The notes under the pieces: model-generated
What the model saw: only the letters and a program-made list of their open reading frames with translations
Told to the model about the DNA's origin: nothing
Databases searched by the model: none
Program-made: the position numbers and the translations under genes
Shown: one piece after another, positions 15,678-36,086 of the stretch
Layout of the letters: each line of letters opens with the position of its first letter
Position numbering within the stretch: the first letter of the stretch is position 1
Origin: Schlesneria sp.
GTDB taxonomy: Bacteria; Planctomycetota; Planctomycetia; Planctomycetales; Planctomycetaceae
Direction: 5' to 3'
Assembly (NCBI GenBank): GCA_043721755.1
Contig: JAYSQC010000294.1
Location: 20,839-84,838 of the forward strand
Length of the DNA: 64,000 nucleotides

Positions 15678-17084
15678 TCACTGCGCGGGACCGGGATGCC
15701 CTAGCCGCCGCTCTTTGCCGAAGTAGAGCGTGAACGTATCGAAGCGTTCCACGTCTCGGCCTGCTTCTTCCCAGCCGTAGGGATAATTGCCGAAGTGCCA
15801 CAGTCGGTGCGTCGTATCAGCGTGAATCTTGAAGCCACAGTCACGCGCCCGCTGGGCGAACGAATAGTCCTCGGCCAGATACCACGTCCCTTCGTCGATG
15901 GGATTCAGCATCGGATGAAAGAACGGGATCATCGGCGTGCCGAACCGTTCGTTGCAGACCGGCAGTTGGTGGTGCCGCATCACTGTCAGATAGACTTCGC
16001 GGCGGACGTGCAGGAATCCCGCTCCGGCATACATGACTTCGTACAGCCCGCCCCCTTGGCCGAACGTCATCGAGGTCGTTCCCGGCATGACGTGCGTCGC
16101 CATGGCGCGGCGTCCTTTTTGGGCGCACATCCCCGTCACCATCGGGAGGTTGTGCGCACGAATGCGGTCGATCGCATCGGGGTGGAAACCCACATCGGCA
16201 TCAATCCAAAATGTCTCCTCGAATCCGTCGAGCAGCGAATCGGTCGCCATCTGATTCCGTCCCTGATCGATGGCCGCGTAACCACCGACGCGACGCACCG
16301 GATAGCCACGCCGCTCCAGCTCCTTCAGCGAGTCATCACACGAAGGGACAATCTGAGTATGAAACGGGACGAGGACCACGCACTTGCGCGGGTCCATCGG
16401 GTTCGCCGACGCCCGAGGAGCCAGCGGCCGGTCTCGTTTCAAATCCGGATCTGGTTCGGCAATCGCCTTCCAGCGGCCGGGGCACATTACCTGATGCTCT
16501 TCGGGAACCCCCACGAACGACAACAGTTCGCGCAGCCCCTGCTCCGTATCGAACGCCAGTTCCGGATCGAACACGCGCACCCGATCCGGGTGCCGATGGG
16601 CCAGTCGCTCGGCTGTGTCGTAGTAGTCTTCCCAATACCGGCGAATCCCCTCGTCGCGATCCGTAGTTGGGTACTGCGGATAGATGCGAGTCCAGAGTGG
16701 ATCATGATGCCATCGCGTTCCCGGTTCGCGCGTCCAATGGTTGATGGCCAGCGAATGGTTCCTGTCCAGAAACCGATTGAAACTCCCAATCACTTCGTCA
16801 CACGGCCGCTTCAGGCATACCAGCCGGACGTTCGATTCTGTCGCCAGAATCTCGTCAACATACGGCAGGTAGAACGACGCCGAGTCCCCCACAATGGGCG
16901 TTTCACTACCGCCTCGCATCCGCTGAAACCGCTGCGGAATTACGGGACGATTGGGCTTGAGCCACGGCAGCAACGCCCCATCCTGATACGTCACGGCACA
17001 TCCCGGCTGACGATTCAAAACATCCGCCAATCCCAACAGCCCGCACTGTCCCGTCCCTAACCCCAACACGATCCGCGAGTTCAT
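15678..17084 (-). CDS. Sulfotransferase-like domain fused to a GT-A-type glycosyltransferase-like domain
   Basis: ATG at 17084 (MNSRIVLGLGTGQCGLLGL..., a P-loop-like PAPS motif). The C-terminal half has CVVLVPFH...WIDADVGFHPD (DxD-like) and AEDYSF. The track start at 17318 adds an implausible leader. Confidence 0.55.
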   Translation of the reverse strand: MNSRIVLGLGTGQCGLLGLADVLNRQPGCAVTYQDGALLPWLKPNRPVIPQRFQRMRGGSETPIVGDSASFYLPYVDEILATESNVRLVCLKRPCDEVIGSFNRFLDRNHSLAINHWTREPGTRWHHDPLWTRIYPQYPTTDRDEGIRRYWEDYYDTAERLAHRHPDRVRVFDPELAFDTEQGLRELLSFVGVPEEHQVMCPGRWKAIAEPDPDLKRDRPLAPRASANPMDPRKCVVLVPFHTQIVPSCDDSLKELERRGYPVRRVGGYAAIDQGRNQMATDSLLDGFEETFWIDADVGFHPDAIDRIRAHNLPMVTGMCAQKGRRAMATHVMPGTTSMTFGQGGGLYEVMYAGAGFLHVRREVYLTVMRHHQLPVCNERFGTPMIPFFHPMLNPIDEGTWYLAEDYSFAQRARDCGFKIHADTTHRLWHFGNYPYGWEEAGRDVERFDTFTLYFGKERRLGHPGPAQ

Positions 17085-17479
17085 TTCGATGACTTTCTGA
17101 TGTGATGCGTCCGTTTGCCGTTGAGTCAGGAGCGTTCCTTTCTCAGTTGATCTCAACTGCATGAAACATCGCAGCACTGTGCCCTGTAGATTCACTGAAT
17201 GGAAGCACGAAAAGGCGGCAGGAAAGTCATTCCACAACAACGGTGGAAAAACGAAATCACTTGAGGGGTTGGTGAACGCCTCCGAGGATCGAACAATCTC
17301 TTGGGAGTGGCGTTGCAAAACGAAGCGGCGCGAATTAGGTTTCCGCCCATCCCATCAACGTTGGTCTGTGGCGTTCGACTTCGGAACGCGCACCACCATC
17401 CCGTGCAATACGCACCTCAACTCAGTTTCAGTCTTCGAGATTCGGCTTTCGTTGCGCCCTCACGACGGATTACTCGACC

Positions 17480-20400
17480 ATGCTGCTGTTCAATTGGCTG
17501 GCCTCTGTCCGCAATCGCCTGCGAGTGTCTCGTTACTTTGGTTCTCGTCGTGAGCGGACTCGCCCACGAGGCCGTCGCGACGTTCATTCTCGTGTCCCGG
17601 CAATGATCGAAGTGCTGGAACAGCGTTGCGTTCTCAGCGCGGTCGGTGCCATCGACGATGTGTTCACGGTTTCTGTCAGTGGCAGCAGCCAACCAACCCA
17701 ATTGAACGTTCTGGCGAACGACTTCAGCAGCGCTGGTGGGTTGCAATTGTCGGCCGTTGGCAGCGCCGCTCACGGGACGATCAGCATCGACCAGAGCGAT
17801 CCAACCCAATTGCCGAGTCTGATCTACACGGCCGACGTGGGCTTCATTGGGGTGGAGACGTTCGACTACACGGTCATGGATGCCGATGGTGATTCGGCGT
17901 TTGCCACCGTGACGGTGACCGTCGGTGGTTCCAATCCGTATTCCAATTCTGGCTCGACAACCGGTGTGCTGACAACGGCCACTACGGTGATTGACTCCTA
18001 CGTGTCGCAGATTGCAGGAGCGGTCAGTGGCGGTGTCAGTGGAGGATCATACTCGCCCTACGATCCATCGTGGGGAACCGGCAGCACGACATCATCCCCA
18101 CTCAGTAGCTCAGGGACGGGTTCCTCTTCCGGAGGCACTGCCGGGAATCCCGAGAACATTGCCGGGACGGCATTCGGTTCTGGATCAACAAGTGACTCAG
18201 GAATGGCGTCGTCTGGACTTCCTTCAAACTCAGGTGGACCAACGGGTGGCTCGACGTATGCCACAGGCTTTGAAGGCGGCTTCCAATCGCCGAGTGACCC
18301 CACAGGAACCAACCCTACCGATCCCTCCGGCTATAGTGGAGGTACGTGGCCAACGGGAGGTTCGGGTGGGACTTCAGGAGAAGGAACATCTTCTTCAGGA
18401 GGCACGTCAGGGTCTGGTGGTAATCTTCCGGGTGACCCCGGTTCGAGTGGTAGTGCCGACGATGGGCGGTTTCATCTTGAAGGTGGATATTCGATCGATG
18501 CACACACCACGTTTATTTCCACTTCGGGGAATGTCAGTTCGTCCACAAGCTCCACCGATCTGATCAATGAGACCAATACGGGCGGCGAGAATGTGATTTT
18601 CGTGAGCGTCGGGGCTTCGACAACCACACTTGCCGTCTCGTCCACCGAATATGCGGGAGCGTGGACTTACTCCGAAACATATCTCTTCGATGCGATGATC
18701 ACCGTGACCGGCTCGGACGGATCCGTCACGACGGATCATGAGTGGCTGGGATACAGCTTTGTGGCTTCGGGAGACGCAACGTATTCGACATTCTCACTGC
18801 TGATCGACACGGGCAGTGACCTCGCGGGAACGTATACCGAAGTGTGGTCGGAGACCTCGACCAGCGGCAGCAACAGCGGCGGTTCCCTCGACTGGACGTG
18901 GATGATGTTCTCACAAGACATCATTGGAATCAGCAACACGTCCGATTTGACAACCGCAACTGCGACAGGGGTGACGACACTGGACATTCAATCCAGCGGT
19001 TCGTTTTCCGGACAGGGAACCTACTTTTACGACACCGAAGGTGGCCAAGTCACAGGGGCAATCACCGCGACGGGTCAAAGCTCAGACTCGCTGATATCGA
19101 GCGCAATGGAATCCCAAAGCGTCAGTGGAACGTGGAGTTGGGCCACCGGCACGGCCACACATGCGGGTGCCTCCAAAACGAGCTACAGCTATGCCGGAAT
19201 GGGTGGCTATTTGATCGATGACAACGGCGTGAACCTCGTCGGAACCATCAGTGAAAGTGGGGCCGATCGCAGCGAAGATTCCGATACCGAGCAAGGAGCC
19301 ATTTCGACGGATGGCAAATGGACCTGGAACTCGGGAACGGCCAAGTTCGATGGAGCATCAACTTCGCAATTCTCCGCCGCAGGAACAGGGACCTACACCT
19401 CGACGACCCAGACCAGTACGGCCAACGGCACTCTCTCGGAAATGAGTGGCTTCAGTTCCTCTGCGGCGTATTCCGGTGCCGCGACACTTGGGACAGGTGA
19501 AAAGTGGAACTGGTCCAGCGGTGGGGCCAAATTGTCGATGGGGACCACTTCCTCATTCTCACAAGCCGGGTCCAGCACCTTCACGGATAATACGAGTACC
19601 TCGACATTTGGCGGCACAACGGCAGATTCCAGTGGTGAGACCTCATCGGATCAGGTCAGCATGACTGCGGTCTTGGACCTTGAGGGAACGTGGGATTTCA
19701 ATTGGGGGTTGGCGAAGTCTCAAGGATCATCTTGGTCCGCGACCAGCTATAGCGGCAAAGGCAGTTACTCGACCCAACTTGGCACGCCGGGGCAAACTGG
19801 AGGAGTTTCCGGAGGAGTCAGTGGTGGAACGGAAGCCAACGGAAGTACCTCAGAGTCCTCCGGTTATTCTGCACAACAGTCGATTGGCCAAGAGGGTAAA
19901 TGGGTCTGGGATTCAGGGACGGCCGGGAATTCGTCCAGTGTTACCACTCATTCCGGCTCATCCGGTTCCGGCACATACTCTTATTCGTTACCCGGCGGTT
20001 CTGGAGTGATATCCGGGACGATCACCTCAGGCGGAAGCAGCGACTCAAATCTGAGTGTTTCGCAAACAGCCGCTCTGGACTCATCAGGCAATTGGAGTTT
20101 GGACAAGGGCACACTCACCGTGAGTGGCGGAGCATCGGAAAGCTCTTCCTATGCCGGGAGTGGGGCATACAGTCGCGTGTCGGCCGATGGCTCGATGAAT
20201 GGGACTCAAACCGAGTCAGGGGGCTCCGCGAACAGCAGCAGCTACACCACGACCGCAAATGTGAATACCGATCACAAATGGGAGTGGACCGCTGGCTCTT
20301 CCGCTGTGACGAATGGAGGCTCGGTATCATCGGCCTTTTCGGGGTCGGGAACATTCAGCACACCCACATTCGGGGGCAAGACTACGGAGTCTGGTTCGTT

Positions 20401-23400
20401 TTCGGATTCCACCTCCGAGAATTCCAACAAACTTCTTCGGTCAGATGGCAAGTGGATTCTCGATTCGGGCACCAAGTCTCAATCGACGAGCAGTGCTTTC
20501 GGAGCGTCCTATTCAGGGGCGGGCGGGGTTACGAGTACCGATCCCAGCGGCTCAATCTCGATCTCTTTCGCGGCCTACGGCGGAGACTCGGAAACGGAGA
20601 GTTCGTCGGAGTCACAGATCGTTGGCTCCAACGGAGAATGGCAATCGGGTGGAGGCACGAGGTCGCGCTCCGCAGGGACTGGTAGCGGCTCTTCGTACTC
20701 GGGCAAAGGATCCTATTCGCCCGGCGGTACCGGTGGAACTTCGATGTCCTTCAATATCGAGTTGAGTGGCGGCAGCACTCTCAACGAGACTTTCTCGGAG
20801 GGCGAATCCAATACCGGCACGGGGGGCTGGCAACTCGTGTCTGGTAGCAAGGGGACATCGAACACGAATGATTCCAACGTCGCCTATTCCGGTGCGGGTT
20901 CCTTCCCGATGGGGGCTGCTGGAGCAGGTTCGATCGTCTTCGATGGCACCGATAACCAAAGCAACTCCTTCAGCGAATCCCAACTCGTCGGGACGGGCGG
21001 GACTTGGAATCTGATGGGCGGAGGGAAATCCAACTCAACGTCTTCTGGCCACAATTTCGTGCTCTCGGGGACAGACACGACTTCCGGTGGAGGAATCTCG
21101 GTCACGACCAGCTTCGCCGCTCATGACATTTCCTCCAATTCCGAAAGCACCTCGGCCAAGGTTTCGAGTTCCCTCGGGATCGGCCCGAACACTTGGGGCG
21201 ACGAAACCGGCTCCAAATCTCAGTCGGATGATTCCGGATTCACATTTTCGGCTAAGGGGGGCGGAACGCAGTCGCTCGCGATCGCTGGCGGCACCATCAA
21301 TGCCGGAATCCTCATCGACATGAGTAGCACGCAAAGCTCGGTTCACTCGGAGAGCCACGATTTGACGGGCGCAGGCTGGCAACCCATCTCAGGGTCGAGG
21401 TCCGAATCGTCGAGTGAATCGTCGAAGATGCAAATGAACGGAACCGGGACGTATACAAGGGGGACCGTCAACGGAACGCTCAATCTGATGAAGATGGATA
21501 CGTCGTCCAACTCGTCGTTCTCGACGGTTGAGTCACTCGGTTCGACGGGAGCGTGGACATTTACTTCCGGCAATCGCAGTGCGGCATCAGACAATGATTT
21601 TCAGTTCACGTATGCTGGAAGTGGAACCTACACGTATCCCGTCGCCGGTGGTCAGGTGGATGGTGGTCTCACGGAATTTGGAAACGCCGACAATACCGAC
21701 AACCACTCCCAATCCGAGTCGATCAATGCGGCGGGAGATTGGCAATTTGACGTGGGGAGCAAATCTCACTCGGCGGGAAATTCGTCCACGTTCAGTTCAT
21801 CGGGGACGGGCACTTATTCATACGCGGTCACTGGAGGCAGCGTCTCCGGAACAATCAATGAAGCGAATTGGTCGACTTCATCGAATAATGAAACGGAGTT
21901 TAATACTCGCGGTTCGATCGGAGGTTGGAGTTCGCTCGGGACAAAAACGAGCGGGACGGCGGGAGGTTCCACACGAGACTTTGTCGGTTCGGGCAGTTAC
22001 TCCATCAACATCCCCGATCCCACTGACGCGAAAAAGAGTGCGGGAAGTGTGTCAGGGAAAATTGATGAGGGCGGCAGTACGAACTCCAACTCCTCCGAAA
22101 GCTTGGGATGGTCGCTCAGTGCCGGTAATGGCTGGCAGCAAGTTTCGGGTTCACGTTCCCATTCCAATGGAAATAGTTCCAACAGCAAGTCTTCCGGATC
22201 GGGAAGCTACTCGTACACCGATTTGGAGAATGCCAACGGCATCTATCGCAGCGTCTCGCACAGTGGCAAAATCGAGGAAGACGCGTCCAGCGACTCCGGC
22301 AGCTCCGCTTCCGACGCCCTGATGTTTTCGACCGCTGGTGTCTGGGTGCGAACGTCCGGGGGGACATCCAGTTGGAATAGTTCACATCAATCATCAAATT
22401 CCTCGGGAACGGGCAAATACACGTTCAATGTCGGTGGAACATCGGCCAGCCCGGACTACAGGAAACTGAGCGGAGATGTCACCGAGAGCCGTTCGAGCCT
22501 CGACGATCAGAGTTATTCGTTAAGCACGACGTTCACGCCGTTCGGCACCTTTGTGACAACCGGCTCGAAGTCGTCCACCGGAAACTGGAGTGACGACAGC
22601 TCCCTCACTGGTAAGGGATCGTACAGCCGCTCCGTCACAGGCGGCTCCGTCACAGGCACGATCACCAGCCACAACCTCTCACGGGGACAGAGTTCAAATT
22701 CCACGGCCGCTTGGGGCGTCGATGCCTTCGGCGGGTGGGTGTTGCTGAGTGGCGTTGCGAGCCAGGCGTCTGACAGCACGTCCAACGAGGCTTGGAACGG
22801 AACCGGAACGTACTCCACATCCAACTCGGTGACAGACCCCGCCACGGGTAAAACCCTGTCGTCGCAGTCGATGAGTGGAACCGTGACCGACACAGGTTGT
22901 GAAGTATATGACTCCGGTGGCAGCAGTTCCGCCTCTAAAGTGAACTCCAGCGGTGAATGGGAACAGACGTTCGGCTATGCGTCGTCCAGCAAGCGTTCCA
23001 AGAACAACTCAACGATGACAGGCAGCGGAACGTATTCCAACAACGCGTGGGGGGACACGACTCGCAGTGTCTCCGGCACGTTGTCGGAGAACTACAACTC
23101 GTCCGTCGAGTCTGAAAACAGTGAATCGTGGGTCTTTATGAAGGCGGCGTTTGCCAGTGACATGGTTCAGGTGTCCGGTACTCGGAAGCTGATTACCAGC
23201 AGCGGCGGGAGCTTCACCAGTGACGGGAGCGGGACGTACAGCCACGGTCAGGTGCAAAATGGCAAGGTGACTCGCGACTTCAGTACTCGTTCGGGATCGC
23301 ATGGGGAGAGCAAGGTCGAGAGCTTTAGCGGGGGCGGCTGGACGCTCACGTGGTCGGGGAGCGATTCCAGCAGCCAGTCGTCGGACAACTCGTACTCGGG

Positions 23401-26377
23401 GAGCGGGAGTTCAGCCTTCGACCCGCCCGTGATCACCGAGCCGTTCCGCACGTCGGAGTACCATTCCTCGGGCAGCTATGAGGAAGATTTCCAATTTCAG
23501 AATGGCAATAGCAATTCGTCAAACTGGACGGCCGATGCGACCGGCGGCAAAACGACCACGATCACTTCATCCGCCTCCTCTCTGGAGCATCGCCACACGG
23601 CCTCTTCGGGAGGGACTAGCGCCATCCAAGTCACTTGGTACGACATTCCACCGAATCCGTACACTGCGGGTGGCAAGCAGTCCAACACCCAGGAAAACAA
23701 GTCGAACAGCAGCAACAGCGTGACGTGGCATGTGACTTCCAACAGTTTCTCCAATGTCACCATTGATCCCAGCGGAGGAGTCACGGGGGGCGGTCTGCGG
23801 ACCGGTTCGGGCGCTGTCGATGTGGCAGTGAGTCACGGCAATTGGAGCCGGGGCAAGAATGCCGGCCCGATGGACAAGAGTTCGCATACCGCCACGTACG
23901 ACATGACGAACAACTCGCACGACGGCTATGCGTCCGTCACCGCCTCCATCGGCACGTCGATGCCCGCAACGGTAAACATGGTGGACGGAAACAGAACGTC
24001 GTCCATGCATTCCACCCGGGTGGAATTCGACATGATGGGGAACCTCATCGTACCGACTTTCCCAACCCCTCCCGCCAGCACATGGAGCCAGTCCTATCTG
24101 ACGGTCACATTCACAGAAGGGTTCTATACAAATCCGTACTTCGCCCAATCACCGCCCGCTCCCACGTCGCTGCCACCTGCCACGCCCCCTTCCGGAACCG
24201 GAGGACAAGGCGGCGGCGGAGCGATGAATTCAGCGCAAGTCCTGCGTATGAGAGCACTCGCGGTCTACAACTTCGGTGCTTCGTTGTTCACCGCTGACGG
24301 CCGATCCGCAGTTGTGAATGGTGTCAGCAACGCCGCTAGCAACGCCAGGAATGACCCCCTCGGAACGTTAGGCTCCGCCGTCAGAAGTGCCCTTGATCCC
24401 GAAGGCTTGCGAAACGCCTACAACGGTCGGTTGGATGACGGAACACTTCTGACATGGGATGCCAGAATCACAGAAGGAATGCTCGGAGCGTTTGATGCAT
24501 TAACGACGGCTACAGGCATTGGAGGTGCAATCAAAGGTGCCGCCAAAGGCTTGGGCAAGGTCACGTTGAAGGGGCTACGATCCAGCGTCGATGATGTTGC
24601 GAAGGCGACATGTCGAGTTGCGGAAAATGGCGGATGCTTCACCGAGGAGACGGAAGTGATTGTCGGCCCCGGTAACATGACGCTGATTGCCGCTCACACG
24701 GGCGAGGACCGTTCTTCGTTATTGGCGATCCTCGCAGCGGCTGGCGTGCTGGTCATCGGAAGGGTTGCGGCCAGGCGTTTGAAGGGCAGCGACGAGGAAG
24801 AGGAGGGACTGATGGACGAACCCAACGGTCGGCGTTCGTTGAGCAATCTTCGCCTACAGGGACTCGATGGCGAACCCTCGTCGAGCGACACCGAACTGGC
24901 CCCCCGTTGGCAACTCCAACGAAGCGGCACCATCACGCTCGCCACAACAGAGCCCCAGCCCGCGATTGAACCTCTATGGTCAATCACGTTGCCTAGAGCG
25001 ATAAAAGAGGACGCTGCACAAACGCGGACCATGACCATCGAGCATCCTCCGACGATGTCCACAATCGAACCGGTTTCAAGGGAGCGAAGGCAACACGCCA
25101 CGGGCCGAAACCGCTCCCGAAATTGGTTGGCATCGACTGTTGGTCTGCTCTCGTTGCTGATTGCGGGGATGTGTTTGTGGTGTGCGTTGCCGGGATCAGG
25201 ACGGGCCGAGGCCGTCACCTCTCCGTCTGAAGTTCAACAGTACGAGACCAAACGCATTTCGCAGATTGAACCGTTGGATTGGGTGTTGGCCGGGAACCCA
25301 GAAAGGGAGCGGGATATTCAGTTTGGTGAGGTCATTCATCCACACCAGTGGCGGTTGCTGAAGCTGGTCGCTCCGAAGAAATCGGGTGGTACGGCTGAAG
25401 TCCGGATGGCTCGGCCGTTGACGTGGCTGTACTCGCAGTGGCAGTTGAGTCTGGCTGCGCCTGAAGATCCGGATGAAACGGCATCGAATTTTGACTTCGC
25501 AATACACGAAGGCGACGACGATTCCCTCCTAGCGTTTGATGAAGCCCGGTTGGTGGCATTCGACCCGCAGCAGTTGGTGGGCTGCACGATCTACATCTCG
25601 GTCCCCGAGTGCGGGATCGACGGCCACGCTCAGGTCTTGACGGTCGAGGACTGTCCGAACCTCAAGCCGCGACCGGGACCGGGGTATCAACTCGTCACGG
25701 CCACGTTCAAACATCGCGGGGCGAGGGTCGTCGATGTCCATGTCGCGGGACTGTCGGCCCCAATCGGCTCAACACCCAATCACCCGTTCTGGTCCGAGGA
25801 CAAACAGCAATTCGTCCGAGCCGACACCCTACAACCGGGCGAACACCTGCGCCAAGCCGACGGCTCACTGACCACCGTCACCGCCGTCATTCCCCGCCCC
25901 GGCACCCATAACGTCTACAACCTCGAAGTCCATCTCGACCATGTCTACCACGTCGCCAGCAACGGCGTCTTGGTGCATAATGGGTCGCTTCTTGACTGCC
26001 CTTTAACGCAGTGGGTTGATCCAAGAACGATTAATTTTTCGCAACGCAATGTTTCGGCAAACGTGATCGATTACACGTTAGACATGGAAAAGCGAGGAAA
26101 ACACTTCTTTGACAGACCTCTTAATGTCATAGAAACAAACGCTGGACAATTTGTTTCTCTTGACAATAAGCGACTAATGGCTGCTCGAATGACTGGCACT
26201 CAAGTGCCCATTCGGATTGTCAAAGCTAATGAATTTATGAACGGTACTTCTAGGAAGACGTGGGGGCAAGACCTGAACAATAAGCTGAGTGGCCAGAGTC
26301 GCCCTCGTGGATTACCACCAGTTCCAGCTCTGCCGACTCATGGAGGAAGCGGCCTTCCTGGAATTGAATTCGACTGA
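17480..26377 (+). CDS. Giant (2965 aa) S/G/T-rich repeat surface protein with a C-terminal HINT domain and polymorphic toxin tip
   Basis: It begins with a basic leader followed by IEVLEQRCVLSA. A cadherin/Ig-like module follows (LNVLANDF...FDYTVMDADGDSAFATVTVTV). About 2000 aa of degenerate W-containing S/G/T repeats come next. The HINT domain runs from CFTEETEVIV to NGVLVHN, followed by a 131-aa C-terminal domain. Confidence 0.85.
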   Translation: MLLFNWLASVRNRLRVSRYFGSRRERTRPRGRRDVHSRVPAMIEVLEQRCVLSAVGAIDDVFTVSVSGSSQPTQLNVLANDFSSAGGLQLSAVGSAAHGTISIDQSDPTQLPSLIYTADVGFIGVETFDYTVMDADGDSAFATVTVTVGGSNPYSNSGSTTGVLTTATTVIDSYVSQIAGAVSGGVSGGSYSPYDPSWGTGSTTSSPLSSSGTGSSSGGTAGNPENIAGTAFGSGSTSDSGMASSGLPSNSGGPTGGSTYATGFEGGFQSPSDPTGTNPTDPSGYSGGTWPTGGSGGTSGEGTSSSGGTSGSGGNLPGDPGSSGSADDGRFHLEGGYSIDAHTTFISTSGNVSSSTSSTDLINETNTGGENVIFVSVGASTTTLAVSSTEYAGAWTYSETYLFDAMITVTGSDGSVTTDHEWLGYSFVASGDATYSTFSLLIDTGSDLAGTYTEVWSETSTSGSNSGGSLDWTWMMFSQDIIGISNTSDLTTATATGVTTLDIQSSGSFSGQGTYFYDTEGGQVTGAITATGQSSDSLISSAMESQSVSGTWSWATGTATHAGASKTSYSYAGMGGYLIDDNGVNLVGTISESGADRSEDSDTEQGAISTDGKWTWNSGTAKFDGASTSQFSAAGTGTYTSTTQTSTANGTLSEMSGFSSSAAYSGAATLGTGEKWNWSSGGAKLSMGTTSSFSQAGSSTFTDNTSTSTFGGTTADSSGETSSDQVSMTAVLDLEGTWDFNWGLAKSQGSSWSATSYSGKGSYSTQLGTPGQTGGVSGGVSGGTEANGSTSESSGYSAQQSIGQEGKWVWDSGTAGNSSSVTTHSGSSGSGTYSYSLPGGSGVISGTITSGGSSDSNLSVSQTAALDSSGNWSLDKGTLTVSGGASESSSYAGSGAYSRVSADGSMNGTQTESGGSANSSSYTTTANVNTDHKWEWTAGSSAVTNGGSVSSAFSGSGTFSTPTFGGKTTESGSFSDSTSENSNKLLRSDGKWILDSGTKSQSTSSAFGASYSGAGGVTSTDPSGSISISFAAYGGDSETESSSESQIVGSNGEWQSGGGTRSRSAGTGSGSSYSGKGSYSPGGTGGTSMSFNIELSGGSTLNETFSEGESNTGTGGWQLVSGSKGTSNTNDSNVAYSGAGSFPMGAAGAGSIVFDGTDNQSNSFSESQLVGTGGTWNLMGGGKSNSTSSGHNFVLSGTDTTSGGGISVTTSFAAHDISSNSESTSAKVSSSLGIGPNTWGDETGSKSQSDDSGFTFSAKGGGTQSLAIAGGTINAGILIDMSSTQSSVHSESHDLTGAGWQPISGSRSESSSESSKMQMNGTGTYTRGTVNGTLNLMKMDTSSNSSFSTVESLGSTGAWTFTSGNRSAASDNDFQFTYAGSGTYTYPVAGGQVDGGLTEFGNADNTDNHSQSESINAAGDWQFDVGSKSHSAGNSSTFSSSGTGTYSYAVTGGSVSGTINEANWSTSSNNETEFNTRGSIGGWSSLGTKTSGTAGGSTRDFVGSGSYSINIPDPTDAKKSAGSVSGKIDEGGSTNSNSSESLGWSLSAGNGWQQVSGSRSHSNGNSSNSKSSGSGSYSYTDLENANGIYRSVSHSGKIEEDASSDSGSSASDALMFSTAGVWVRTSGGTSSWNSSHQSSNSSGTGKYTFNVGGTSASPDYRKLSGDVTESRSSLDDQSYSLSTTFTPFGTFVTTGSKSSTGNWSDDSSLTGKGSYSRSVTGGSVTGTITSHNLSRGQSSNSTAAWGVDAFGGWVLLSGVASQASDSTSNEAWNGTGTYSTSNSVTDPATGKTLSSQSMSGTVTDTGCEVYDSGGSSSASKVNSSGEWEQTFGYASSSKRSKNNSTMTGSGTYSNNAWGDTTRSVSGTLSENYNSSVESENSESWVFMKAAFASDMVQVSGTRKLITSSGGSFTSDGSGTYSHGQVQNGKVTRDFSTRSGSHGESKVESFSGGGWTLTWSGSDSSSQSSDNSYSGSGSSAFDPPVITEPFRTSEYHSSGSYEEDFQFQNGNSNSSNWTADATGGKTTTITSSASSLEHRHTASSGGTSAIQVTWYDIPPNPYTAGGKQSNTQENKSNSSNSVTWHVTSNSFSNVTIDPSGGVTGGGLRTGSGAVDVAVSHGNWSRGKNAGPMDKSSHTATYDMTNNSHDGYASVTASIGTSMPATVNMVDGNRTSSMHSTRVEFDMMGNLIVPTFPTPPASTWSQSYLTVTFTEGFYTNPYFAQSPPAPTSLPPATPPSGTGGQGGGGAMNSAQVLRMRALAVYNFGASLFTADGRSAVVNGVSNAASNARNDPLGTLGSAVRSALDPEGLRNAYNGRLDDGTLLTWDARITEGMLGAFDALTTATGIGGAIKGAAKGLGKVTLKGLRSSVDDVAKATCRVAENGGCFTEETEVIVGPGNMTLIAAHTGEDRSSLLAILAAAGVLVIGRVAARRLKGSDEEEEGLMDEPNGRRSLSNLRLQGLDGEPSSSDTELAPRWQLQRSGTITLATTEPQPAIEPLWSITLPRAIKEDAAQTRTMTIEHPPTMSTIEPVSRERRQHATGRNRSRNWLASTVGLLSLLIAGMCLWCALPGSGRAEAVTSPSEVQQYETKRISQIEPLDWVLAGNPERERDIQFGEVIHPHQWRLLKLVAPKKSGGTAEVRMARPLTWLYSQWQLSLAAPEDPDETASNFDFAIHEGDDDSLLAFDEARLVAFDPQQLVGCTIYISVPECGIDGHAQVLTVEDCPNLKPRPGPGYQLVTATFKHRGARVVDVHVAGLSAPIGSTPNHPFWSEDKQQFVRADTLQPGEHLRQADGSLTTVTAVIPRPGTHNVYNLEVHLDHVYHVASNGVLVHNGSLLDCPLTQWVDPRTINFSQRNVSANVIDYTLDMEKRGKHFFDRPLNVIETNAGQFVSLDNKRLMAARMTGTQVPIRIVKANEFMNGTSRKTWGQDLNNKLSGQSRPRGLPPVPALPTHGGSGLPGIEFD
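17960..24200 (+). repeat. Protein-level degenerate repeats of about 55-65 aa (G-x-W-x-W/F-x-SG...SGSGTYSY...GG-x-VSGTI...)
   Basis: Recurrent motifs are visible, for example GKWTWNSGTAKFDG, GEKWNWSSGGAKLS, EGKWVWDSGTAGNS, DHKWEWTAGSSAVT, AGDWQFDVGSKSHS and GNGWQQVSGSRSHS. Each is followed by (S/T)G(S/T)GTY(S/T). The copies are diverged at DNA level. Confidence 0.6.
24635..25981 (+). other. PT-HINT-like domain interrupted by a roughly 190-aa insertion carrying two predicted TM helices
   Basis: The N-terminal block is CFTEETEVIVGPG. The insertion contains LLAILAAAGVLVIG and WLASTVGLLSLLIAGMCLWCAL. The domain resumes at YETKRISQIEPLDWVLAGN and ends with the canonical VYNLEV...HVYHVASNGVLVHN. 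Confidence 0.6.
25982..26374 (+). other. C-terminal toxin domain 1 (ParB/Srx-fold-like by pattern)
   Basis: VDPRTINFSQRNVS...DRPLNVIETNAGQFVSLDNKRLMAARMTGTQVPIRIV resembles ParB-N/sulfiredoxin-fold nuclease domains (compare GhhR..Aa). GC content drops visibly from here. Confidence 0.4.
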
Positions 26378-26396
26378 GTAAACAAAGGGGGTCGAA

Positions 26397-26909
26397 GTGA
26401 TTTCGCAAGGCCTTTGGAAAAACGGTGACTGCCTCCAGATCGACTCGGTGCAATTCGGTGATGATTGCGTCGCGATTCTAAAGGTAACTTACCCTCCACA
26501 GTCGTACCTAGACGACCAGAGCATTGTACCGCATGTCTCGATTGAAAAGAGAGAGCCGATATTGGGCGTGATTAGTAACGAGCCTAATCTGCCAAAAGTC
26601 GGACTATGCCCGTCACATTCCGTTGATTTCACATGGAATTCTGAAATTCTTCGATGCCAAGTCGGGGAGGGTAGTGGCTGGGACGGATTCGGATACGTAG
26701 CTGTTTCTCGGGTCGCAGATGACTATTTATACTGGGTGGCATTTTTTGAAAGATCAAATGGTTTCGACCAGGTGTACATTAAAGACAACTCTGTGATTGC
26801 GACTCCGTACCTCGGCTGGGAATATGTATTCGACCTTGCCGCACCGGAGCGAATAAAGATCAGAACGAGCAAATCAAAGGAGACAGATCAAACGGGTCAG
26901 GGGTCGTAA
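26397..26909 (+). CDS. Candidate immunity protein for toxin tip 1
   Basis: The GTG start lies 20 nt after the toxin stop and follows AAAGGGGG. The ORF is 170 aa, lower in GC and has no signal peptide. The assignment rests on position only. Confidence 0.45.
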   Translation: MISQGLWKNGDCLQIDSVQFGDDCVAILKVTYPPQSYLDDQSIVPHVSIEKREPILGVISNEPNLPKVGLCPSHSVDFTWNSEILRCQVGEGSGWDGFGYVAVSRVADDYLYWVAFFERSNGFDQVYIKDNSVIATPYLGWEYVFDLAAPERIKIRTSKSKETDQTGQGS

Positions 26910-26945
26910 ATCTGGAATGTCACATCGCAGCAAACTGGGGAGCGG

Positions 26946-27000
26946 AAAAGGGGACAGGTCCATATTAGGCATTGCGGCTTATATGGACCTGTCCCCTTTT
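26946..27000. terminator. Perfect 20-bp stem / 15-nt loop hairpin
   Basis: AAAAGGGGACAGGTCCATAT-N15-ATATGGACCTGTCCCCTTTT lies 37 nt after the 26909 stop, and the 3' arm ends in TTTT. Confidence 0.6.
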
Positions 27001-27165
27001 GGCTCCCGCTAAATTGCACTCAGAACTGCCTGTTGTATCGACTGGCTGGGCACAGGCAAACGCATTCTTCAAGGCTGAGCGTAGGCAAGTTAACATCGGT
27101 CTTGGTAATGGAAATGCTCTGAGTATTTTTAACAATAACATTGCAGGTTTTAATCAGGTGCCGCG

Positions 27166-27681
27166 ATGACAGACGAAGAAAAAGAGCTTGCGCTTTCACT
27201 TTCTGCCGACGAAATAACCGAGGCCGACTTTTTGCGGATTCTACAAATCGGTCGTGCGGATGTACGCCAGCTAACCTTGCGATTTCTTGAGGAGTCGCTG
27301 GCAACATTGGATCCTGAAGGTGTCGAGTGCGCATTGAACGTTGGTTTTGTGTTCGGCTTCGACACTGAGCATCTCGATGTATTGAGTGCGCTGTCAGATT
27401 CTGAGTGGCATTTCCGTCACGAAGATGTTGTCGAGGCGTTAAGTGATTTACAGTCGCCCCGTACAGTAGATACGTTGTTCAGAGCTGCATTACACCCACA
27501 TGGCTATCTTGATTATGACGAAAGTCGTTCGTTATCAATAAAAGCAATTTGGGCAATCAGCTGTGTTGCAACCCCTTCTGCAATTGAGGCGCTTCACAAA
27601 CTGGCTGCTTCCGATATTGTGCGTGTAGCTGAAGAAGCAAAGCGACATTTGGAGCAGGCCAAAGGAGACGGGACTCTTTGA
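27166..27681 (+). CDS. HEAT-repeat-like protein (immunity-like)
   Basis: The 171-aa protein looks all-helical and has HEAT-like segments (VVEALSDLQSPRTVDTLFRAAL; AIEALHKLAASDIVRVAEEAKRHL). It sits between two toxin modules. Confidence 0.45.
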   Translation: MTDEEKELALSLSADEITEADFLRILQIGRADVRQLTLRFLEESLATLDPEGVECALNVGFVFGFDTEHLDVLSALSDSEWHFRHEDVVEALSDLQSPRTVDTLFRAALHPHGYLDYDESRSLSIKAIWAISCVATPSAIEALHKLAASDIVRVAEEAKRHLEQAKGDGTL

Positions 27682-28931
27682 ATCGCTTAAAAGGGCAACA
27701 CTACAGGAGCCGAAGCCGCTCCCGAAGTTGGTTGGCATCGACTGTTGGTTTGCTCTCGTTGCTGATTGCGGGGGCGTGCTTATGGTGTGCTTTGCCGGGA
27801 TCAGGGCGGGTGGATGCCGTCACCACGCCGTCTGAAGTTCGGCAATACGAGACCAAACGCATCTCACGGATCGTCCCGTTCGACTGGGTGCTGGCGGGAA
27901 ACCCGGAAGGGGAGCGTGATCTTCAGTTTGGCGAGGTCATCCATCCTAAGCAGTGGCGACTGCTGAAACTCGTCGCACCGAAAAAGGGTGGCGGCGAGGC
28001 CGATGTGGACATGGCTCGGCCGCTGACGTGGCTCTATTCGCAGAAGCAGGCCGGTGTGACTGTGCCTGATGAGGCCATCGCGGAAGATGAGGACGACGAC
28101 GACTCACTCATCGCGGTCGATGAAGCACAGCTCGCGGCATTCGATCCACGGCAACTCGTCGGCCGCACGATTTACATCTCAGTCCCCGAATGCGGGATCG
28201 ACGGTCACGCGAAGGTGCTGGCGGTTGAGGACTGCCCGAACCTCAAACCGCGACCTGGACTGGAGTATCAACTCGTCACGGCGACGTTCAAACATCGCGG
28301 GGCGAAAGTCGTCGATGTCCATGTCGCGGGGCTGTCAGCTCCGATCGGCTCGACACCCAATCATCCGTTCTGGTCCGAGGACAAACAGCAATTCGTCCGC
28401 GCCGACACCCTGCAACCGGGCGAACACCTGCGCCAAGCCGACGGCTCACTGACCACCGTCACCGCCGTCATTCCCCGCCCCGGTACCCACAACGTCTACA
28501 ACCTCGAAGTCCACCTCGATCACGTCTACCACGTCGCCAACAACGGCGTGTTGGTCCATAATGGGTCCGCGTGGTGGTGTTACCAAAATCGCGTCGCAGA
28601 GACTTTTGGTTTTACGACCGGTCGAGCTTCAACAGAATTCGTCGGTCAGCTGAAGCCCAAAAGATTCGCCGATGGAGTTTCATCTGACATCACTCACGCG
28701 ATGGAGGCCAAACACATCCATAATTGGAGCCGATCGCCATACAATCCAGCGAACATTCACACCACTGTTGGTGCGCAAAGGCAATTTGGAATGGTTTCTC
28801 AAATGAAAGATCTATCGAACGGATTTCCCAAAGTAACCTATTACACAAATCATTCAGGGATGGCTAATCACCTTCGTGATTTGGCGAGTCGCGCAAATCT
28901 CAGAAATGTTTCAGTTGAATTCCACCCCTAA
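27678..28931 (+). CDS. Orphan TM + HINT-C + alternative toxin tip cassette (PD-(D/E)xK-like)
   Basis: About 880 nt are near-identical to 25090-25985 of the giant gene (WLASTVGLLSLLIAG...NGVLVHNGS). A different 122-aa tail follows, with KRFADGVSSDITHAMEAKH (D...E-x-K). The only start in the track is TTG, so independent translation is uncertain. Confidence 0.65.
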   Translation: MNRLKGQHYRSRSRSRSWLASTVGLLSLLIAGACLWCALPGSGRVDAVTTPSEVRQYETKRISRIVPFDWVLAGNPEGERDLQFGEVIHPKQWRLLKLVAPKKGGGEADVDMARPLTWLYSQKQAGVTVPDEAIAEDEDDDDSLIAVDEAQLAAFDPRQLVGRTIYISVPECGIDGHAKVLAVEDCPNLKPRPGLEYQLVTATFKHRGAKVVDVHVAGLSAPIGSTPNHPFWSEDKQQFVRADTLQPGEHLRQADGSLTTVTAVIPRPGTHNVYNLEVHLDHVYHVANNGVLVHNGSAWWCYQNRVAETFGFTTGRASTEFVGQLKPKRFADGVSSDITHAMEAKHIHNWSRSPYNPANIHTTVGAQRQFGMVSQMKDLSNGFPKVTYYTNHSGMANHLRDLASRANLRNVSVEFHP

Positions 28932-28959
28932 TCCGCGAAGTTCGGCAGGTAACAATGGC

Positions 28960-29364
28960 ATGGCTTTACCAAAAGTAAAAACAAGGAAGCCTCTTCTCGG
29001 TTGTTGGCTTTCGGAACTGATTCAAGCTTCCCGTTTTGTCACACTTAATGAAAATGAAACCGCAAGCGACCTTTTGGGAGATTATGTTGAATATGTGAAA
29101 GACCTTTGTACGGCTGGTGATTATCGTTTTCATCCAATGGTTCAGTGGAACTCCGAGTGTGTTACCACTACTGGAACGAGATACGCTGTTTTGCTGTACC
29201 GCGCTGGCACACCATCGCACATTTATGGGTTCTTGGAGGATTTGTGTAAACGCGACGGAAGGCAGATAGCTGCCTTCCGCGACAACCTGTTTGCGGACGG
29301 AACCGGTTTTACTTGCCCGCCATCGGAATGTGTCGTAATCCAGCGTGCATGGAGGCGGAAATAG
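28960..29364 (+). CDS. Candidate immunity protein for toxin tip 2
   Basis: ATG at 28960 lies 29 nt after the orphan toxin stop (MALPKVKTRKPLLGCW...). The ORF is 134 aa and lower in GC. Confidence 0.45.
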   Translation: MALPKVKTRKPLLGCWLSELIQASRFVTLNENETASDLLGDYVEYVKDLCTAGDYRFHPMVQWNSECVTTTGTRYAVLLYRAGTPSHIYGFLEDLCKRDGRQIAAFRDNLFADGTGFTCPPSECVVIQRAWRRK

Positions 29365-29404
29365 GCTGAGCATATCGCAAGTGGGAATACGGGAATCACT
29401 CGCA

Positions 29405-29480
29405 GCAGTAGTTAGCCGCACGATCTACATCTCTGCCTCTGAGTGCGGGGTCAACGGTTGCGAGAAGGTCTTGGCGGCCG
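29405..29480 (+). pseudogene. Third, degenerate HINT-core remnant
   Basis: It translates as RTIYISASECGVNGCEKVLAA, against GCTIYISVPECGIDGHAQVLTV at about 25580-25645 and GRTIYISVPECGIDGHAKVLAV at about 28165-28230. No intact ORF is present. Confidence 0.45.
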
Positions 29481-29502
29481 GTTTCCTTCTCTTCTCGTTT
29501 TC

Positions 29503-31449
29503 CTACGATTCGGCGAGTTCGAGGTAGGGGTCGAGGCCGAGGGAGTGGCACATTTTGGTGCGGGACTTTTCTTGTTGGAGTTGTTGTTTGCGGTGCTTGA
29601 GGTCGCGGGCTTCGACTGTGCGTTGCGTGCGGTGGAAGGTGCGGAGCCAACGGCGGGGGAGTTCGCCTTGGGAGTTGGGGCGGGCTTGAGCTTGGAGGCG
29701 TTTGAGGTGGGCCGGTTTGAGACAGCGGAACAACTCGTCTTCGAGAGAGAGCCAGAACTGGAATGAGCCGGGGTCGCCTTGCCGGGCGGCGCGGCCGACC
29801 AATTGGCGGTCGATACGGCGGCTGGAGTGCATTTCGGTGGCGATGACGTGCAGTCCGCCATTGGCTCTCACGTCTGCGTGCAGGTGAATGTCGGTGCCTC
29901 GTCCGGCCATGTTCGTCGCGATGGTGACTCGTCCCGGCTGACCGGCTCCCGCCACGATCGCGGCTTCCTGTTCGTGGAACAGGGCGTTGAGAATGTGGCA
30001 GTCGATGCCGAGTTCCTTCAGGCTCTGACCCAACGATTCTGAAGCATGAACGGAAGGGGTGCCGATCAGGATGGCTCGACCTGCGTGATGCAGGCGTTCG
30101 ATCTCGGGGATCAGCGCGGTGCGTTTGGCGGCCTGCGTGGCAAAGACGCGGGGCGAGAGACCGCGTCGGATGCAGGGGCGATGCGTCGGGATGACCGTCG
30201 TTTCCGAGTGGTAGGTTTTTTGGAACTCGCGCCGCGCTGGTAGGCCCGTGCCGGTCATCCCGGCCAGATGCTCGTACCGGCGAAAGAACGTCTGCACGGT
30301 GACGCGAGCCGCTTCGCCCGTTTCATCGGTGATCGGCACGCTCTCCTTCGACTCGACCGCCTGATGGAGTCCCGCCTGCCATTTGCGTCCGTCGAGCGTG
30401 CGTCCGGTCCCTTCATCGACGATGGCGATCTCATCGTCGGCGTTGACGACGTAGTCGCGGCCGCGTTGGAACGCGATCTGTGCCCGCAGCGCCTGCTCGA
30501 CGTAGGTGTAAAGCTTCTCCGTTTCAAAGCCACTGAGTAACGACGGCTTGCGGGCGAGGACGATTTTATGAGTTCCTCGATTGGTCAATTCGATGCTCCG
30601 CTGCGCGGGATCGAACTGATAATCGTGACCCGGTTTTAACTGCCGCGAGACCTCTCCACCCCACTTCAAGAGCGCCGTCGTCGCGTCCGAATTCTTGAGA
30701 TTGAGGCCGATAATGAGCGGTGTTCCGGCGTCGTCGATCAACACGCTGTCGGCTTCGTCGATGAGGGCAAAGTAGTGGCCGCGCTGGACCGGTCCCTGCG
30801 GATCGGGAACGTCGTGTGTGAGGAGTGACGGCCGGGGCGGTTCATCCAGTTTCGAGCCGACTTTCAAACGGTCACGCAGGAAATCGAAGCCGATCTCACG
30901 GCTGGTGGCGTACGTGATGTCCCGCCAATACGCGTGCCGCCGTCCTTCCGGTTCGCTCTCAGACAACACACAGCCGACCGTCAGCCCGAGCCGCTCGTAG
31001 ACTGGCCCCATCTGAGCGCAGTCGCGTTCGGCGAGATAGTCGTTGACGGTGACGACATGGCAGCCGCGTCCCGGCAATGCGCGGAGGAATGTGGGAAGGG
31101 TGGCGGTCAGTGTCTTGCCCTCACCTGTCTGCATTTCGGCCAGCCCCCCTTCAAACAGGGCGATGCCGCCCATGATCTGCACGGGGTAGTGTTGCTGGCC
31201 GAGCACTCGTCGCGAGGACTCACGCACCAGCGCATACGCTTCGGGGAGGAGTGACTTCAACGAAGTTCCCGACTTCGCTAGCCAGCGGACTTCGTTCGAC
31301 CGGCTCCGCAATTCCTCGTCGCTGAAATTGGCCAGCGATTCGGACAGCGTGATGACTTGCGAAGCCAGCCCCCGCCAGCGCGAAACTCGCGCCGCCATCG
31401 GCCGTCCGCCAGTCTTGATCCAGTGCCAGAGGGGATTGAGGAGGGACAT
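29503..31449 (-). CDS. Truncated SecA paralog (SecA2-like ATPase, 648 aa)
   Basis: ATG at 31449. SecA motifs are present: QIMGGIALFEGGLAEMQTGEGKTLTATLP, VVTVNDYLAERD, LIDEADSVLIDDAGTPLII, a PPXD-like VDEGTGRTLDGRKWQAGLHQAVESKE, LAGMTGT, MAGRGTDI and RIDRQLVGRAARQGDPG. It lacks the HWD/CTD part of a housekeeping SecA of about 900 aa. Confidence 0.8.
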   Translation of the reverse strand: MSLLNPLWHWIKTGGRPMAARVSRWRGLASQVITLSESLANFSDEELRSRSNEVRWLAKSGTSLKSLLPEAYALVRESSRRVLGQQHYPVQIMGGIALFEGGLAEMQTGEGKTLTATLPTFLRALPGRGCHVVTVNDYLAERDCAQMGPVYERLGLTVGCVLSESEPEGRRHAYWRDITYATSREIGFDFLRDRLKVGSKLDEPPRPSLLTHDVPDPQGPVQRGHYFALIDEADSVLIDDAGTPLIIGLNLKNSDATTALLKWGGEVSRQLKPGHDYQFDPAQRSIELTNRGTHKIVLARKPSLLSGFETEKLYTYVEQALRAQIAFQRGRDYVVNADDEIAIVDEGTGRTLDGRKWQAGLHQAVESKESVPITDETGEAARVTVQTFFRRYEHLAGMTGTGLPARREFQKTYHSETTVIPTHRPCIRRGLSPRVFATQAAKRTALIPEIERLHHAGRAILIGTPSVHASESLGQSLKELGIDCHILNALFHEQEAAIVAGAGQPGRVTIATNMAGRGTDIHLHADVRANGGLHVIATEMHSSRRIDRQLVGRAARQGDPGSFQFWLSLEDELFRCLKPAHLKRLQAQARPNSQGELPRRWLRTFHRTQRTVEARDLKHRKQQLQQEKSRTKMCHSLGLDPYLELAES

Positions 31450-31499
31450 GGGGGAGGGGCTTGGGGAGTCGGGAATGGGGGGACCAAGGAGCCACGGCT

Positions 31500-31529
31500 G
31501 AAGTCCGGCTTTCGGAAAAGGCGGACTTC
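31500..31529. repeat. REP-like palindrome copy (GAAGTCCGGCTTTCGGAAAAGGCGGACTTC)
   Basis: An imperfect copy of the 15628-15657 element, in the intergenic region between the GAF-HlyD and SecA2-like genes. Confidence 0.45.
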
Positions 31530-31547
31530 TCCACCACCGCACGCTCC

Positions 31548-33653: not shown

Positions 33654-33727
33654 GGTGTGACTTGAAAGAGAACGGGAAAAATGTGAGTGGTCTCGGTTGT
33701 TGGCTGACCGTTGGCTTCCGCCGCAGA

Positions 33728-35953: not shown

Positions 35954-35997
35954 GGAATTGGCTTTGGACGTGGAGTATCGACGGTAGGCAAGTGGCC

Positions 35998-36029
35998 GAA
36001 GTCCGGCTTAGCTTTGTCAGCCGGACTTC
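35998..36029. repeat. REP-like palindrome copy (GAAGTCCGGCT-N10-AGCCGGACTTC), with an extra half-site at 36039-36048
   Basis: A perfect 11-bp inverted repeat in the intergenic region between the HlyD adaptor and the M50-HlyD gene. Confidence 0.5.
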
Positions 36030-36086
36030 CTTCGAGGTGCGGACTTCCGCCGATATGGTCTTTTCCCTCTGGCCAAAAGCCAACAG

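Follow-up and report, generated by a model that had tools for sequence, protein, structure and literature searches.

The window analysed here is a 64,000-nucleotide (nt) stretch from Schlesneria sp. (assembly GCA_043721755.1, contig JAYSQC010000294.1, forward-strand positions 20,839 to 84,838), and our subject is the 3' part of a single plus-strand open reading frame (ORF), 17480-26377, which encodes a planctomycete polymorphic toxin of 2965 amino acids (aa). In this protein a leader, an immunoglobulin (Ig)-like domain and a long repeat stalk are followed by a PT-HINT / type-A bacterial intein-like (BIL) domain, whose first strand is very probably separated from the remainder of the fold by an insertion carrying two transmembrane (TM) helices, and by a C-terminal toxin domain. 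The features of the gene are listed in order below; pLDDT denotes the predicted local distance difference test score of the AlphaFold2 model of the protein.

17480..26377, plus strand: giant polymorphic toxin gene, comprising leader, Big_9 domain, repeat stalk, predicted split HINT and C-terminal toxin.
17615-17638, plus strand: LEQRCVLS, the motif that ends the basic N-terminal leader and recurs at the N-termini of related giant proteins.
About 17651-17920, plus strand: Big_9 Ig-like domain (Pfam).
17921-24634, plus strand: Ser/Thr/Gly-rich repeat stalk, ~2,100 residues in units of roughly 90 aa.
24635..24673, plus strand: HINT N-fragment (strand 1), Cys2386-Phe-Thr-Glu-Glu-Thr-Glu-Val-Ile-Val-Gly-Pro-Gly, placed by BIL alignment and opening on an invariant Cys-Phe.
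24713..24772, plus strand: TM1, SSLLAILAAAGVLVIGRVAA, followed by RRLKGS and then DEEEE; mean Kyte-Doolittle hydropathy over 19 residues 2.18; helical in the AlphaFold2 model.
24773..25123, plus strand: loop of about 117-118 aa, acidic then basic, disordered (pLDDT below 45), ending in RERRQHATGRNRSRN.
25124..25189, plus strand: TM2, WLASTVGLLSLLIAGMCLWCAL; 19-residue mean 2.00; helical in the AlphaFold2 model (pLDDT 74-95); left end of the exchangeable cassette.
25241..25303, plus strand: resumption of the HINT, YETKRISQIEPLDWVLAGNPE, corresponding to strands 2-3 (G..IE.I..GD.Vla.np) of BIL domains and inteins.
25304..25615, plus strand: second, family-specific HINT insertion of about 100 aa (W.ll.L.apK.dG...RP..Wl...vG..i.v.E.G), delimited by alignment to the BIL structure 2LWY.
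25616..25981, plus strand: C-terminal part of the HINT, recognized by Pfam PT-HINT, 2LWY and Foldseek.
25982..26374, plus strand: C-terminal toxin domain, 131 aa; homology to the downstream orphan cassette stops exactly at its start.

The HINT domain opens at Cys2386 (nt 24635) with CFTEETEVIVGPG, and its second piece begins at residue 2588 (nt 25241) with YETKRISQIEPLDWVLAGN (YETKRISQ). From this first cysteine (Cys1) to Tyr2588 there are 202 aa, of which about 188 are inserted, in good agreement with the sequence-only reading of this DNA, which had taken CFTEETEV as the HINT start and proposed an interruption of roughly 190 aa between the same two positions. That reading had also suggested the PT-HINT profile as a means of delimiting the insertion, and here the Pfam model alone (PF07591) proved indecisive: it scores 44.6 bits against a cut-off of 27.7 and covers profile positions 31-136 only (nt 25682-25981), so that the first 30 profile positions lack a match downstream of TM2. 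More informative was a family profile, for which 17 members were spliced in silico by joining the 12-14 residues from Cys1 to the post-TM2 sequence, and which was then compared with all PDB sequences. Its top match is the Clostridium thermocellum BIL 2LWY (E 5.4e-18), and the first aligned stretch runs unbroken over the artificial junction, pairing profile positions 2-54 with 2LWY residues 3-56 ('gCFvaetevvvae' joined to 'latkkiedirvgervlaenpe' versus 'KAFVAGTMILTA-TGLVAIENIKAGDKVIATNPE' in 2LWY). The N-fragment of the window protein pairs with AFVAGTMILTA of 2LWY and its resumption piece with TGLVAIENIKAGDKVIATNPE directly after, the post-TM2 sequence corresponding to BIL residue ~14 onward. 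The junction is likewise crossed in alignments to the HINT of Streptomyces UmbC (8W20, E 7.5e-16 against the family profile), Tetrahymena BIL2 (6Y75) and PI-SceI, and the 2LWY profile alignment contains no equivalent of strand 1 or Cys1 downstream of TM2, strand 1 being present only upstream of TM1. The refuting case named in the sequence-only reading, a HINT that opens only past the TM helices, is therefore not what the alignment shows. Because the spliced profile aligns without a break across the junction, we place the insertion about 12 residues into the HINT fold.

In the AlphaFold2 model of the window protein, GGCFTEETEV adopts strand geometry at a pLDDT of 89 between flanks below 50, with only 7 rows of the underlying alignment covering the N-fragment, and the top Foldseek matches of the modelled core are BIL domains and inteins, in local alignments that do not bridge the 200-residue insertion. 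Furthermore, 19 full-length relatives, about 30% identical, retain Cys-Phe, the Thr/His pair of block B and the terminal His-Asn without exception. We therefore regard a HINT domain split after its first strand by a membrane-helix insertion as highly probable.

The catalytic hallmarks of type-A BIL domains are all present, namely Cys1, the block B Thr-x-x-His (TPNH at 25772-25783), the terminal His2833-Asn2834 (HN at 25976-25981, where the VLVHN motif ends at nt 25981) and the lack of a +1 nucleophile, the following residue being Gly. The T, H and HN of the core are invariant in the 57-75 sequences compared, and the +1 residue is Gly in the window's clade and varies among G, S, T, A, K, M and D in distant clades. 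With a +1 Gly, and with a variable stalk and a variable toxin as flanks, the domain departs from canonical class 1 inteins. Cys2386 is predicted to act as the nucleophile of an N-S acyl shift, with Gly2385-Cys2386 as the scissile bond, and the C-terminal scissile bond is predicted from the sequence to be Asn2834-Gly2835. The second insertion, which occupies positions 55-119 of the family profile and has no counterpart in 2LWY, is kept in all relatives and is mostly modelled at a pLDDT above 90, except for an acidic stretch (25436-25573) that is specific to the window protein.

TM1 and TM2 account for the only two 19-residue segments in the 2965-aa protein with a mean Kyte-Doolittle hydropathy above 1.6 and for its two lowest sums on the Hessa scale (+1.2 and -0.4 kcal/mol, respectively, the next best being +5.7), and both segments are helical and their linker disordered in the AlphaFold2 model. 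The three measures thus bear out the initial description of two strongly hydrophobic helices and an acidic linker within the HINT. A strong hydrophobic helix occupies the TM2 site in 185 of the 214 family members that contain the region, and TM1 is found in all full-length relatives, 15-37 aa after Cys1. Loop length in the family ranges from 53 to 250 aa, with that of the window protein inside this range, and loop sequence is not conserved. Charge is distributed consistently: across 22 full-length proteins, the mean net charge over 15 residues is +3.2 after TM1 and +3.3 before TM2, compared with -2.5 and -0.2 on the outer sides of the two helices. Hydropathy and charge counts thus reveal the features of a Sec-inserted helical hairpin, with two helices of ~20 hydrophobic residues and Lys/Arg enrichment on the loop side. 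By the positive-inside rule, the Lys/Arg-rich side of a membrane segment is cytoplasmic, and because the clusters lie on the loop side, the sequence points to a probable topology with the loop in the cytoplasm and both HINT pieces outside; TM1 is then predicted to be a stop-transfer helix (outside to inside) and TM2 a re-insertion or signal-anchor helix (inside to outside). Two helices would in fact put both HINT pieces on the same side whatever the orientation, as the fold requires.

These data bear on the cell in which the hairpin would act, as a coupling of toxin release to membrane insertion had been proposed for either the producer or the target. Of these, the producer is favoured by the Lys/Arg clusters, the signal-anchor-like TM2 and the 53-250 aa loops, and the coupling itself is left as a proposal. 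[quoted passage not shown] Such a device would answer the need of toxins with cytoplasmic immunity to cross a target membrane, for which other toxin classes use hydrophobic helices; however, a charged, disordered loop as long as this would need to traverse the bilayer, in contrast to the very short hairpin loops of pore-forming toxins, and an even number of helices would leave the toxin on the side of entry. Moreover, neither a PAAR domain nor a chaperone-like neighbour was found, and the positive-inside pattern is typical of Sec/YidC insertion. The long charged loops thus fit co-translational Sec/YidC insertion in the producer and argue against spontaneous insertion into a target membrane.

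Some loops carry short motifs of their own. A pattern [LIVM]-D-x-[LIVFM]-[FLM]-[ASTG] (LDEFFA, IDEFFA, LDHLFA) occurs in 12 of 27 loops versus 0.4 expected from shuffles (for example in L038:9449-10900, L019:1814-3514 and around residues ~190-200 of P0010), and LCD[DR]L[FL] is seen in 6; the loop of the window protein has neither, and the motifs suggest a cytoplasmic binding partner in the relatives concerned. At the outer end of TM2 (25166-25189 in the window), 37 of 185 members carry Cys-[Phe/Leu]-Trp followed by A-L-P-G, as CLWC in the window protein and CFWQ in many others. A lipobox reading of this cysteine was rejected, as C[FL]W is present in just those 37 members and the spacing is not canonical. 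Eight residues past TM2, an Ala-x-Ala-like sequence in the window protein (RAEA/VT, with the slash marking the candidate cut) might be a signal-peptidase site.

We then asked how widely the arrangement is distributed. A word-indexed search recovered 108 proteins with the region, of which six reach far enough upstream, and all six share the layout of Cys-Phe..Thr.Val, TM1, Lys/Arg cluster, variable loop, Lys/Arg cluster, TM2 and core. A scan of one genome per GTDB species yielded 180 relatives; the best 78 loci all belong to Planctomycetota or to loosely labelled or unclassified bins, with Planctomycetaceae, Pirellulaceae, Stieleria, Blastopirellula and a Phycisphaeraceae bin among the groups represented, and every long ORF with a window-type HINT in the scanned loci is split in the same way. 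When HMMER was run exhaustively with just the family-specific 209 aa from TM2 to the second insertion, it returned 643 cluster representatives at E ≤ 1e-3, 189 of them at E ≤ 1e-10. The same insertion, whose presence in homologous toxins the sequence-only reading had proposed to survey, is found in each of the more than 35 proteins that reach far enough upstream (2905, 3162 and 5545 aa are among their lengths), all from Planctomycetota, and no member of the window's HINT clade was found to have a contiguous HINT. As it is present in every homologue that extends far enough, the split arrangement is not a chance occurrence. A 1522-aa protein from a related locus (L058:3-4568, plus strand) carries a contiguous PT-HINT (CFVEGTPIAMADGAVKPIE...LLVHNE) and, ~130 residues on, a TM-split one (CFTAGTQVLVGE..TM1..TM2..core), and provides an internal comparison because both forms occur in one polypeptide.

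We propose, at about even chances for the reading as a whole, that the last ~580 residues form a membrane-anchored self-processing module in which the hairpin is a self-excising tether in the producer's inner membrane; the tether function of the hairpin, taken on its own, we put forward tentatively, at slightly under an even chance. In such a scheme the stalk would be exported first, TM1 would halt transfer, and TM2 would set export going again for the HINT core and toxin. At the periplasmic face, strand 1 would then meet the core, so that the fold would be completed only after TM2 has exported the core, and the assembled HINT would cut Gly-Cys2386 via a thioester and Asn2834-Gly via a succinimide, which forms more readily at Asn-Gly than at any other sequence. 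The spent HINT and its hairpin would be left in the inner membrane, and stalk and toxin would be freed, either separately or joined, in the latter case by attack of the freed amine of the C-flank on the Cys1 thioester, as in type-A BIL domains. TM2 would double as the first element of an exchangeable cassette of TM2, HINT core and toxin. Where type-A BIL domains end in His-Asn and lack a +1 nucleophile, both ends are cleaved and the flanks can be spliced by aminolysis, the amine released on Asn cyclisation attacking the N-terminal thioester (PMC4031507), and HINT folds tolerate a break after 10-12 residues, some C-fragments alone carrying out C-terminal cleavage (PMC3620165). By analogy, the window HINT may cleave or ligate its flanks.

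Several observations weigh against this proposal. The N-terminal stretch of the 2LWY alignment is weak when taken alone (independent E 0.22), and the Pfam PT-HINT match still starts at profile position 31 on constructs from which the insertion was deleted. In the AlphaFold2 model of the Gimesia aquarii homologue P0010, the Cys-Phe strand reaches a pLDDT of only 45, and support from structural models for strand 1 as part of the HINT fold is thus mixed. A classical hydrophobic signal peptide was not seen in the N-terminal leader of the stalk by sequence inspection and hydropathy scan. Finally, if stalk and toxin were merely cut apart, stalk-borne delivery of the toxin would be hard to explain.

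In a rival reading the split does not work at all: Cys-Phe...Thr.Val would be a relic, TM1 a C-terminal anchor of the stalk fused to an orphan-type unit, and cleavage at Asn the only remaining reaction. Most family members are orphans that lack strand 1 and yet have intact HINT cores, some C-fragments of the S1 type cleave at the C-terminus alone, and the conserved hydrophobic N-terminus of Planctomyces toxins has been viewed as a signal peptide (Zhang et al. 2011); the missed N-fragment in Pfam and the unconfident P0010 model would also be expected. We nevertheless give this reading a low probability, as, at ~30% identity, every full-length protein retains Cys-Phe, whereas the 15-37 residues that follow it and the loop vary, the BIL alignment is continuous over the junction, and the block B Thr/His, with its role at the N-terminal junction, is invariant too.

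The constant proximity of Cys1 to TM1 raises another scenario, in which the Cys2386 thioester would be resolved by a lipid, hopanoid, sterol or peptidoglycan, anchoring the C-terminus of the stalk covalently, by analogy with Hedgehog, where cholesterol resolves the HINT thioester. The 15-37 residues that separate Cys1 from TM1 in every member would place the active site at the membrane surface, and the Hedgehog Hint model (PF01079) does cross the junction, on the joined sequences only. Its score, however, is 13.9-14.5 bits against a cut-off of 29.7 (E 0.03-0.04), there is neither a sterol-recognition region nor an acceptor-binding module, and the gene context offers no support, all of which makes a Hedgehog-like transfer very improbable.

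Further evidence comes from the genes immediately downstream, all on the same strand.

26397..26909, plus strand: probable cognate immunity gene, 170 aa, starting 19 nt past the toxin stop and without a signal-like segment.
27166..27681, plus strand: immunity-like HEAT-repeat protein, 171 aa (HEAT_2 E 3.4e-5, below gathering score).
27678..28931, plus strand: orphan cassette, 417 aa, with a basic N-region, TM2', a HINT lacking strand 1 and a different toxin.
27729-27794, plus strand: orphan TM2', almost identical to the main TM2; the ORF starts 17 codons before it.
27846-28562, plus strand: orphan HINT without strand 1, ending in VLVHN before a Gly (PT-HINT 46.7 bits).
28563-28928, plus strand: orphan toxin domain, unlike that of the main gene; the homology breaks at VHN-GS.

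The order of toxin, 170-aa ORF, HEAT-repeat ORF and 417-aa orphan is that of a usual polymorphic toxin locus with an orphan cassette, and it is by this layout that 26397..26909 is considered the probable cognate immunity gene; the C-terminal toxin and this 170-aa protein have no Pfam or NCBIfam matches even at E 10. Orphan and main gene are 80% identical over TM2 and the HINT core, with a ratio of nonsynonymous to synonymous substitution rates (dN/dS) of 0.157 at a dS of 0.55. Their DNA identity sets in some 12 codons upstream of TM2, increases toward the 3' end and is lost immediately past VHN-Gly-Ser, which upholds the initial observation that the orphan cassette begins at the second helix. 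The TGA stop of the HEAT-repeat gene and the TTG start of the orphan share nucleotides (cTTTGAa, 27676-27682), as is typical for translationally coupled genes, and no terminator-like hairpin was detected in 26300-29600, versus 4.1 expected, in a promoter and terminator scan that was otherwise uninformative. Most family members in the database are likewise ~400-aa orphans that begin with a basic stretch followed by TM2, as expected if TM2 is the first element of the exchangeable cassette, and some (P0010, P0082, P0150) begin farther upstream, at TM1 or in the pre-HINT region. The frames open upstream of TM2 are no longer than expected by chance. These facts fit ordinary displaced recombination cassettes, and they also permit expression of the orphans as signal-anchored proteins. 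In this light, the conserved hydrophobic N-terminus of Planctomyces toxins that Zhang et al. (2011) read as a signal peptide may be the TM2 helix or the N-terminal leader.

An array in Gimesia aquarii (L079, CP037422.1, 1846440-1868350) contains four HINT-toxin orphans (636, 397, 223 and 262 aa), with small ORFs behind each of them (DUF4259, DUF6959, Cys_rich_CPCC). The first retains the pre-HINT region, Cys-Phe, TM1 and TM2, and no stalk gene is found within 10 kb upstream of the array.

The orphans could also be the large halves of a natural split HINT working in trans, with the loop as a tether, the strand 1-TM1 and TM2-core-toxin portions targeted independently to the membrane, and the orphans pairing with the N-fragment of the stalk. 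The break lies at the S1 site, where N-fragments of 10-12 aa complement in trans, and the orphans open just before TM2 with a basic, signal-anchor-like N-region. The overlapping start and the lack of terminator-like sites in the array would suit their expression, as would the low dN/dS, which includes TM2, and ligation of the aminolysis type is known in type-A BIL domains. On the other hand, in none of the 78 loci was a gene with the N-fragment only (ending after TM1) found, whereas genes with the C-fragment only, the orphans, are abundant, and strand 1 of the main protein is already tethered to its own core. The varied left ends of the orphans are those expected of displaced recombination cassettes, periodic recombination into the expressed gene would equally explain the low dN/dS, and the chance length of the frames upstream of TM2 adds nothing in its favour. 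We consider a split HINT in trans unlikely; if it were true, exchange or ligation of toxins could take place between proteins, with no need for DNA recombination. A related idea, to which we likewise assign little weight, is that the membrane HINT is a protein ligase and not just a cutter: in excising itself together with its helices, it would link the stalk of 2,385 residues to the toxin by attack of the freed Gly+1 amine on the Cys1 thioester. With the break of the fold lying at the S1 site, orphan proteins could also dock in the membrane onto the stalk-borne strand 1, so that warheads would be swapped post-translationally.

We return to the self-excising tether and its relation to known systems. 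By sequence, catalytic residues and locus position, the window HINT is a PT-HINT/type-A BIL domain that departs from both in contiguity, in a form conserved and widespread in one phylum. Like the PT-HINT domains (PF07591) of Zhang et al. (2011, 2012), it lies directly before a variable toxin, followed by an immunity gene and orphan cassettes, scores above the gathering threshold and has Cys1 in a C-F-x-x-x-T-x-V strand, the Thr-x-x-His and the terminal His-Asn, and PT-HINT-type orphan arrays also occur in Gimesia aquarii; unlike them, it is not a contiguous module of about 137 aa, being interrupted by the 188-aa two-TM insertion and by the second one of ~100 aa. Its best sequence match and its best structure match (E 7.8e-8) are both the type-A BIL 2LWY, with which it shares the C-terminal His-Asn and the missing +1 nucleophile, and BIL domains, like the window HINT, occur in hypervariable secreted proteins; BIL domains are, however, soluble and contiguous, and the planctomycete domain is known here from its sequence. 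Engineered S1 split inteins, with N-fragments of 10-12 aa, and natural split inteins provide the parallel of a break after the first strand and of a large fragment encoded alone, as in the orphan genes, whereas the main gene encodes both pieces in one polypeptide, with a membrane hairpin between them, and the window's clade has no +1 Cys, Ser or Thr. With the Hedgehog Hint/Hog the domain would share, besides the HINT fold, a Cys1 thioester and action at the membrane, yet its membrane link is made by inserted TM helices rather than a lipid adduct.

A pair of hydrophobic helices inside a polymorphic toxin is also known from prePAAR/Rhs T6SS effectors, and two-TM modules before PAAR were described by Zhang et al. 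(2011). In those effectors the helices are N-terminal, precede PAAR, need Eag chaperones and lie outside any HINT, and in Pfam searches the window protein had no PAAR, Rhs or Eag (DUF1795) match and its neighbours no PAAR or Eag match. No description of a TM-interrupted HINT, BIL or intein was found in the literature searched, which includes the two comparative-genomics papers that define PT-HINT.

The remainder of the gene and its surroundings are briefly as follows. The stalk units carry recurring G(K/N)W.W..G and SG.GTYSY motifs and have no Pfam family match (not RHS, FilH or ALF), and stalks of similar composition occur in L040 and P0224. Just upstream, on the minus strand (15678-17318), lies a gene for a 546-aa protein with weak similarity to sulfotransferases and glycosyltransferase-21 (E 0.011 each), homologues of which adjoin four related toxin loci, namely L046, L067, L031 and L039, in the last of which the gene (E 1.7e-178) lies directly upstream in the same orientation. 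Modification of the Ser/Thr-rich stalk is a possible role for the protein. Clustering of neighbouring ORFs over the 78 loci revealed no conserved accessory gene, just antisense shadow ORFs, an IS200-like transposase and a common oxidoreductase.

An unusual mix of genes spans 29503-39432 (minus strand 29503-37010, plus strand 37297-39432) and encodes a short SecA paralogue (684 aa), an 879-aa HlyD-like protein, a PqqD, Peptidase_M50 and HlyD fusion (741 aa), a 307-aa HlyD protein and a TolC-like OEP. The SecA paralogue matches SecA/SecA2 models at about 1e-190, below their equivalog cut-offs, and the cluster could be an export system; as a dedicated exporter of the toxin it was rejected, since none of the related loci has it within 10 kb. 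Two further plus-strand genes encode secreted enzymes unrelated to the split HINT, a thermolysin-type M4 peptidase (41656-43347) and a 702-aa fusion of Endonuclease_NS, a non-specific DNA/RNA endonuclease, with a trypsin-like protease (46524-48632).

HINT, intein and BIL domains are otherwise regarded as compact soluble modules. If the proposed module is real, a fold assembled from two membrane-held pieces would represent a new control of autoprocessing, one that fires only after both pieces have been exported and have met, and the engineered S1 split inteins of protein chemistry would have a counterpart in nature. For planctomycete toxin loci, the exchangeable cassette is redefined as TM helix, HINT core and toxin, and the self-excising tether offers a testable model of how giant toxins may be retained, matured and set free in a phylum about whose secretion biology little is known.

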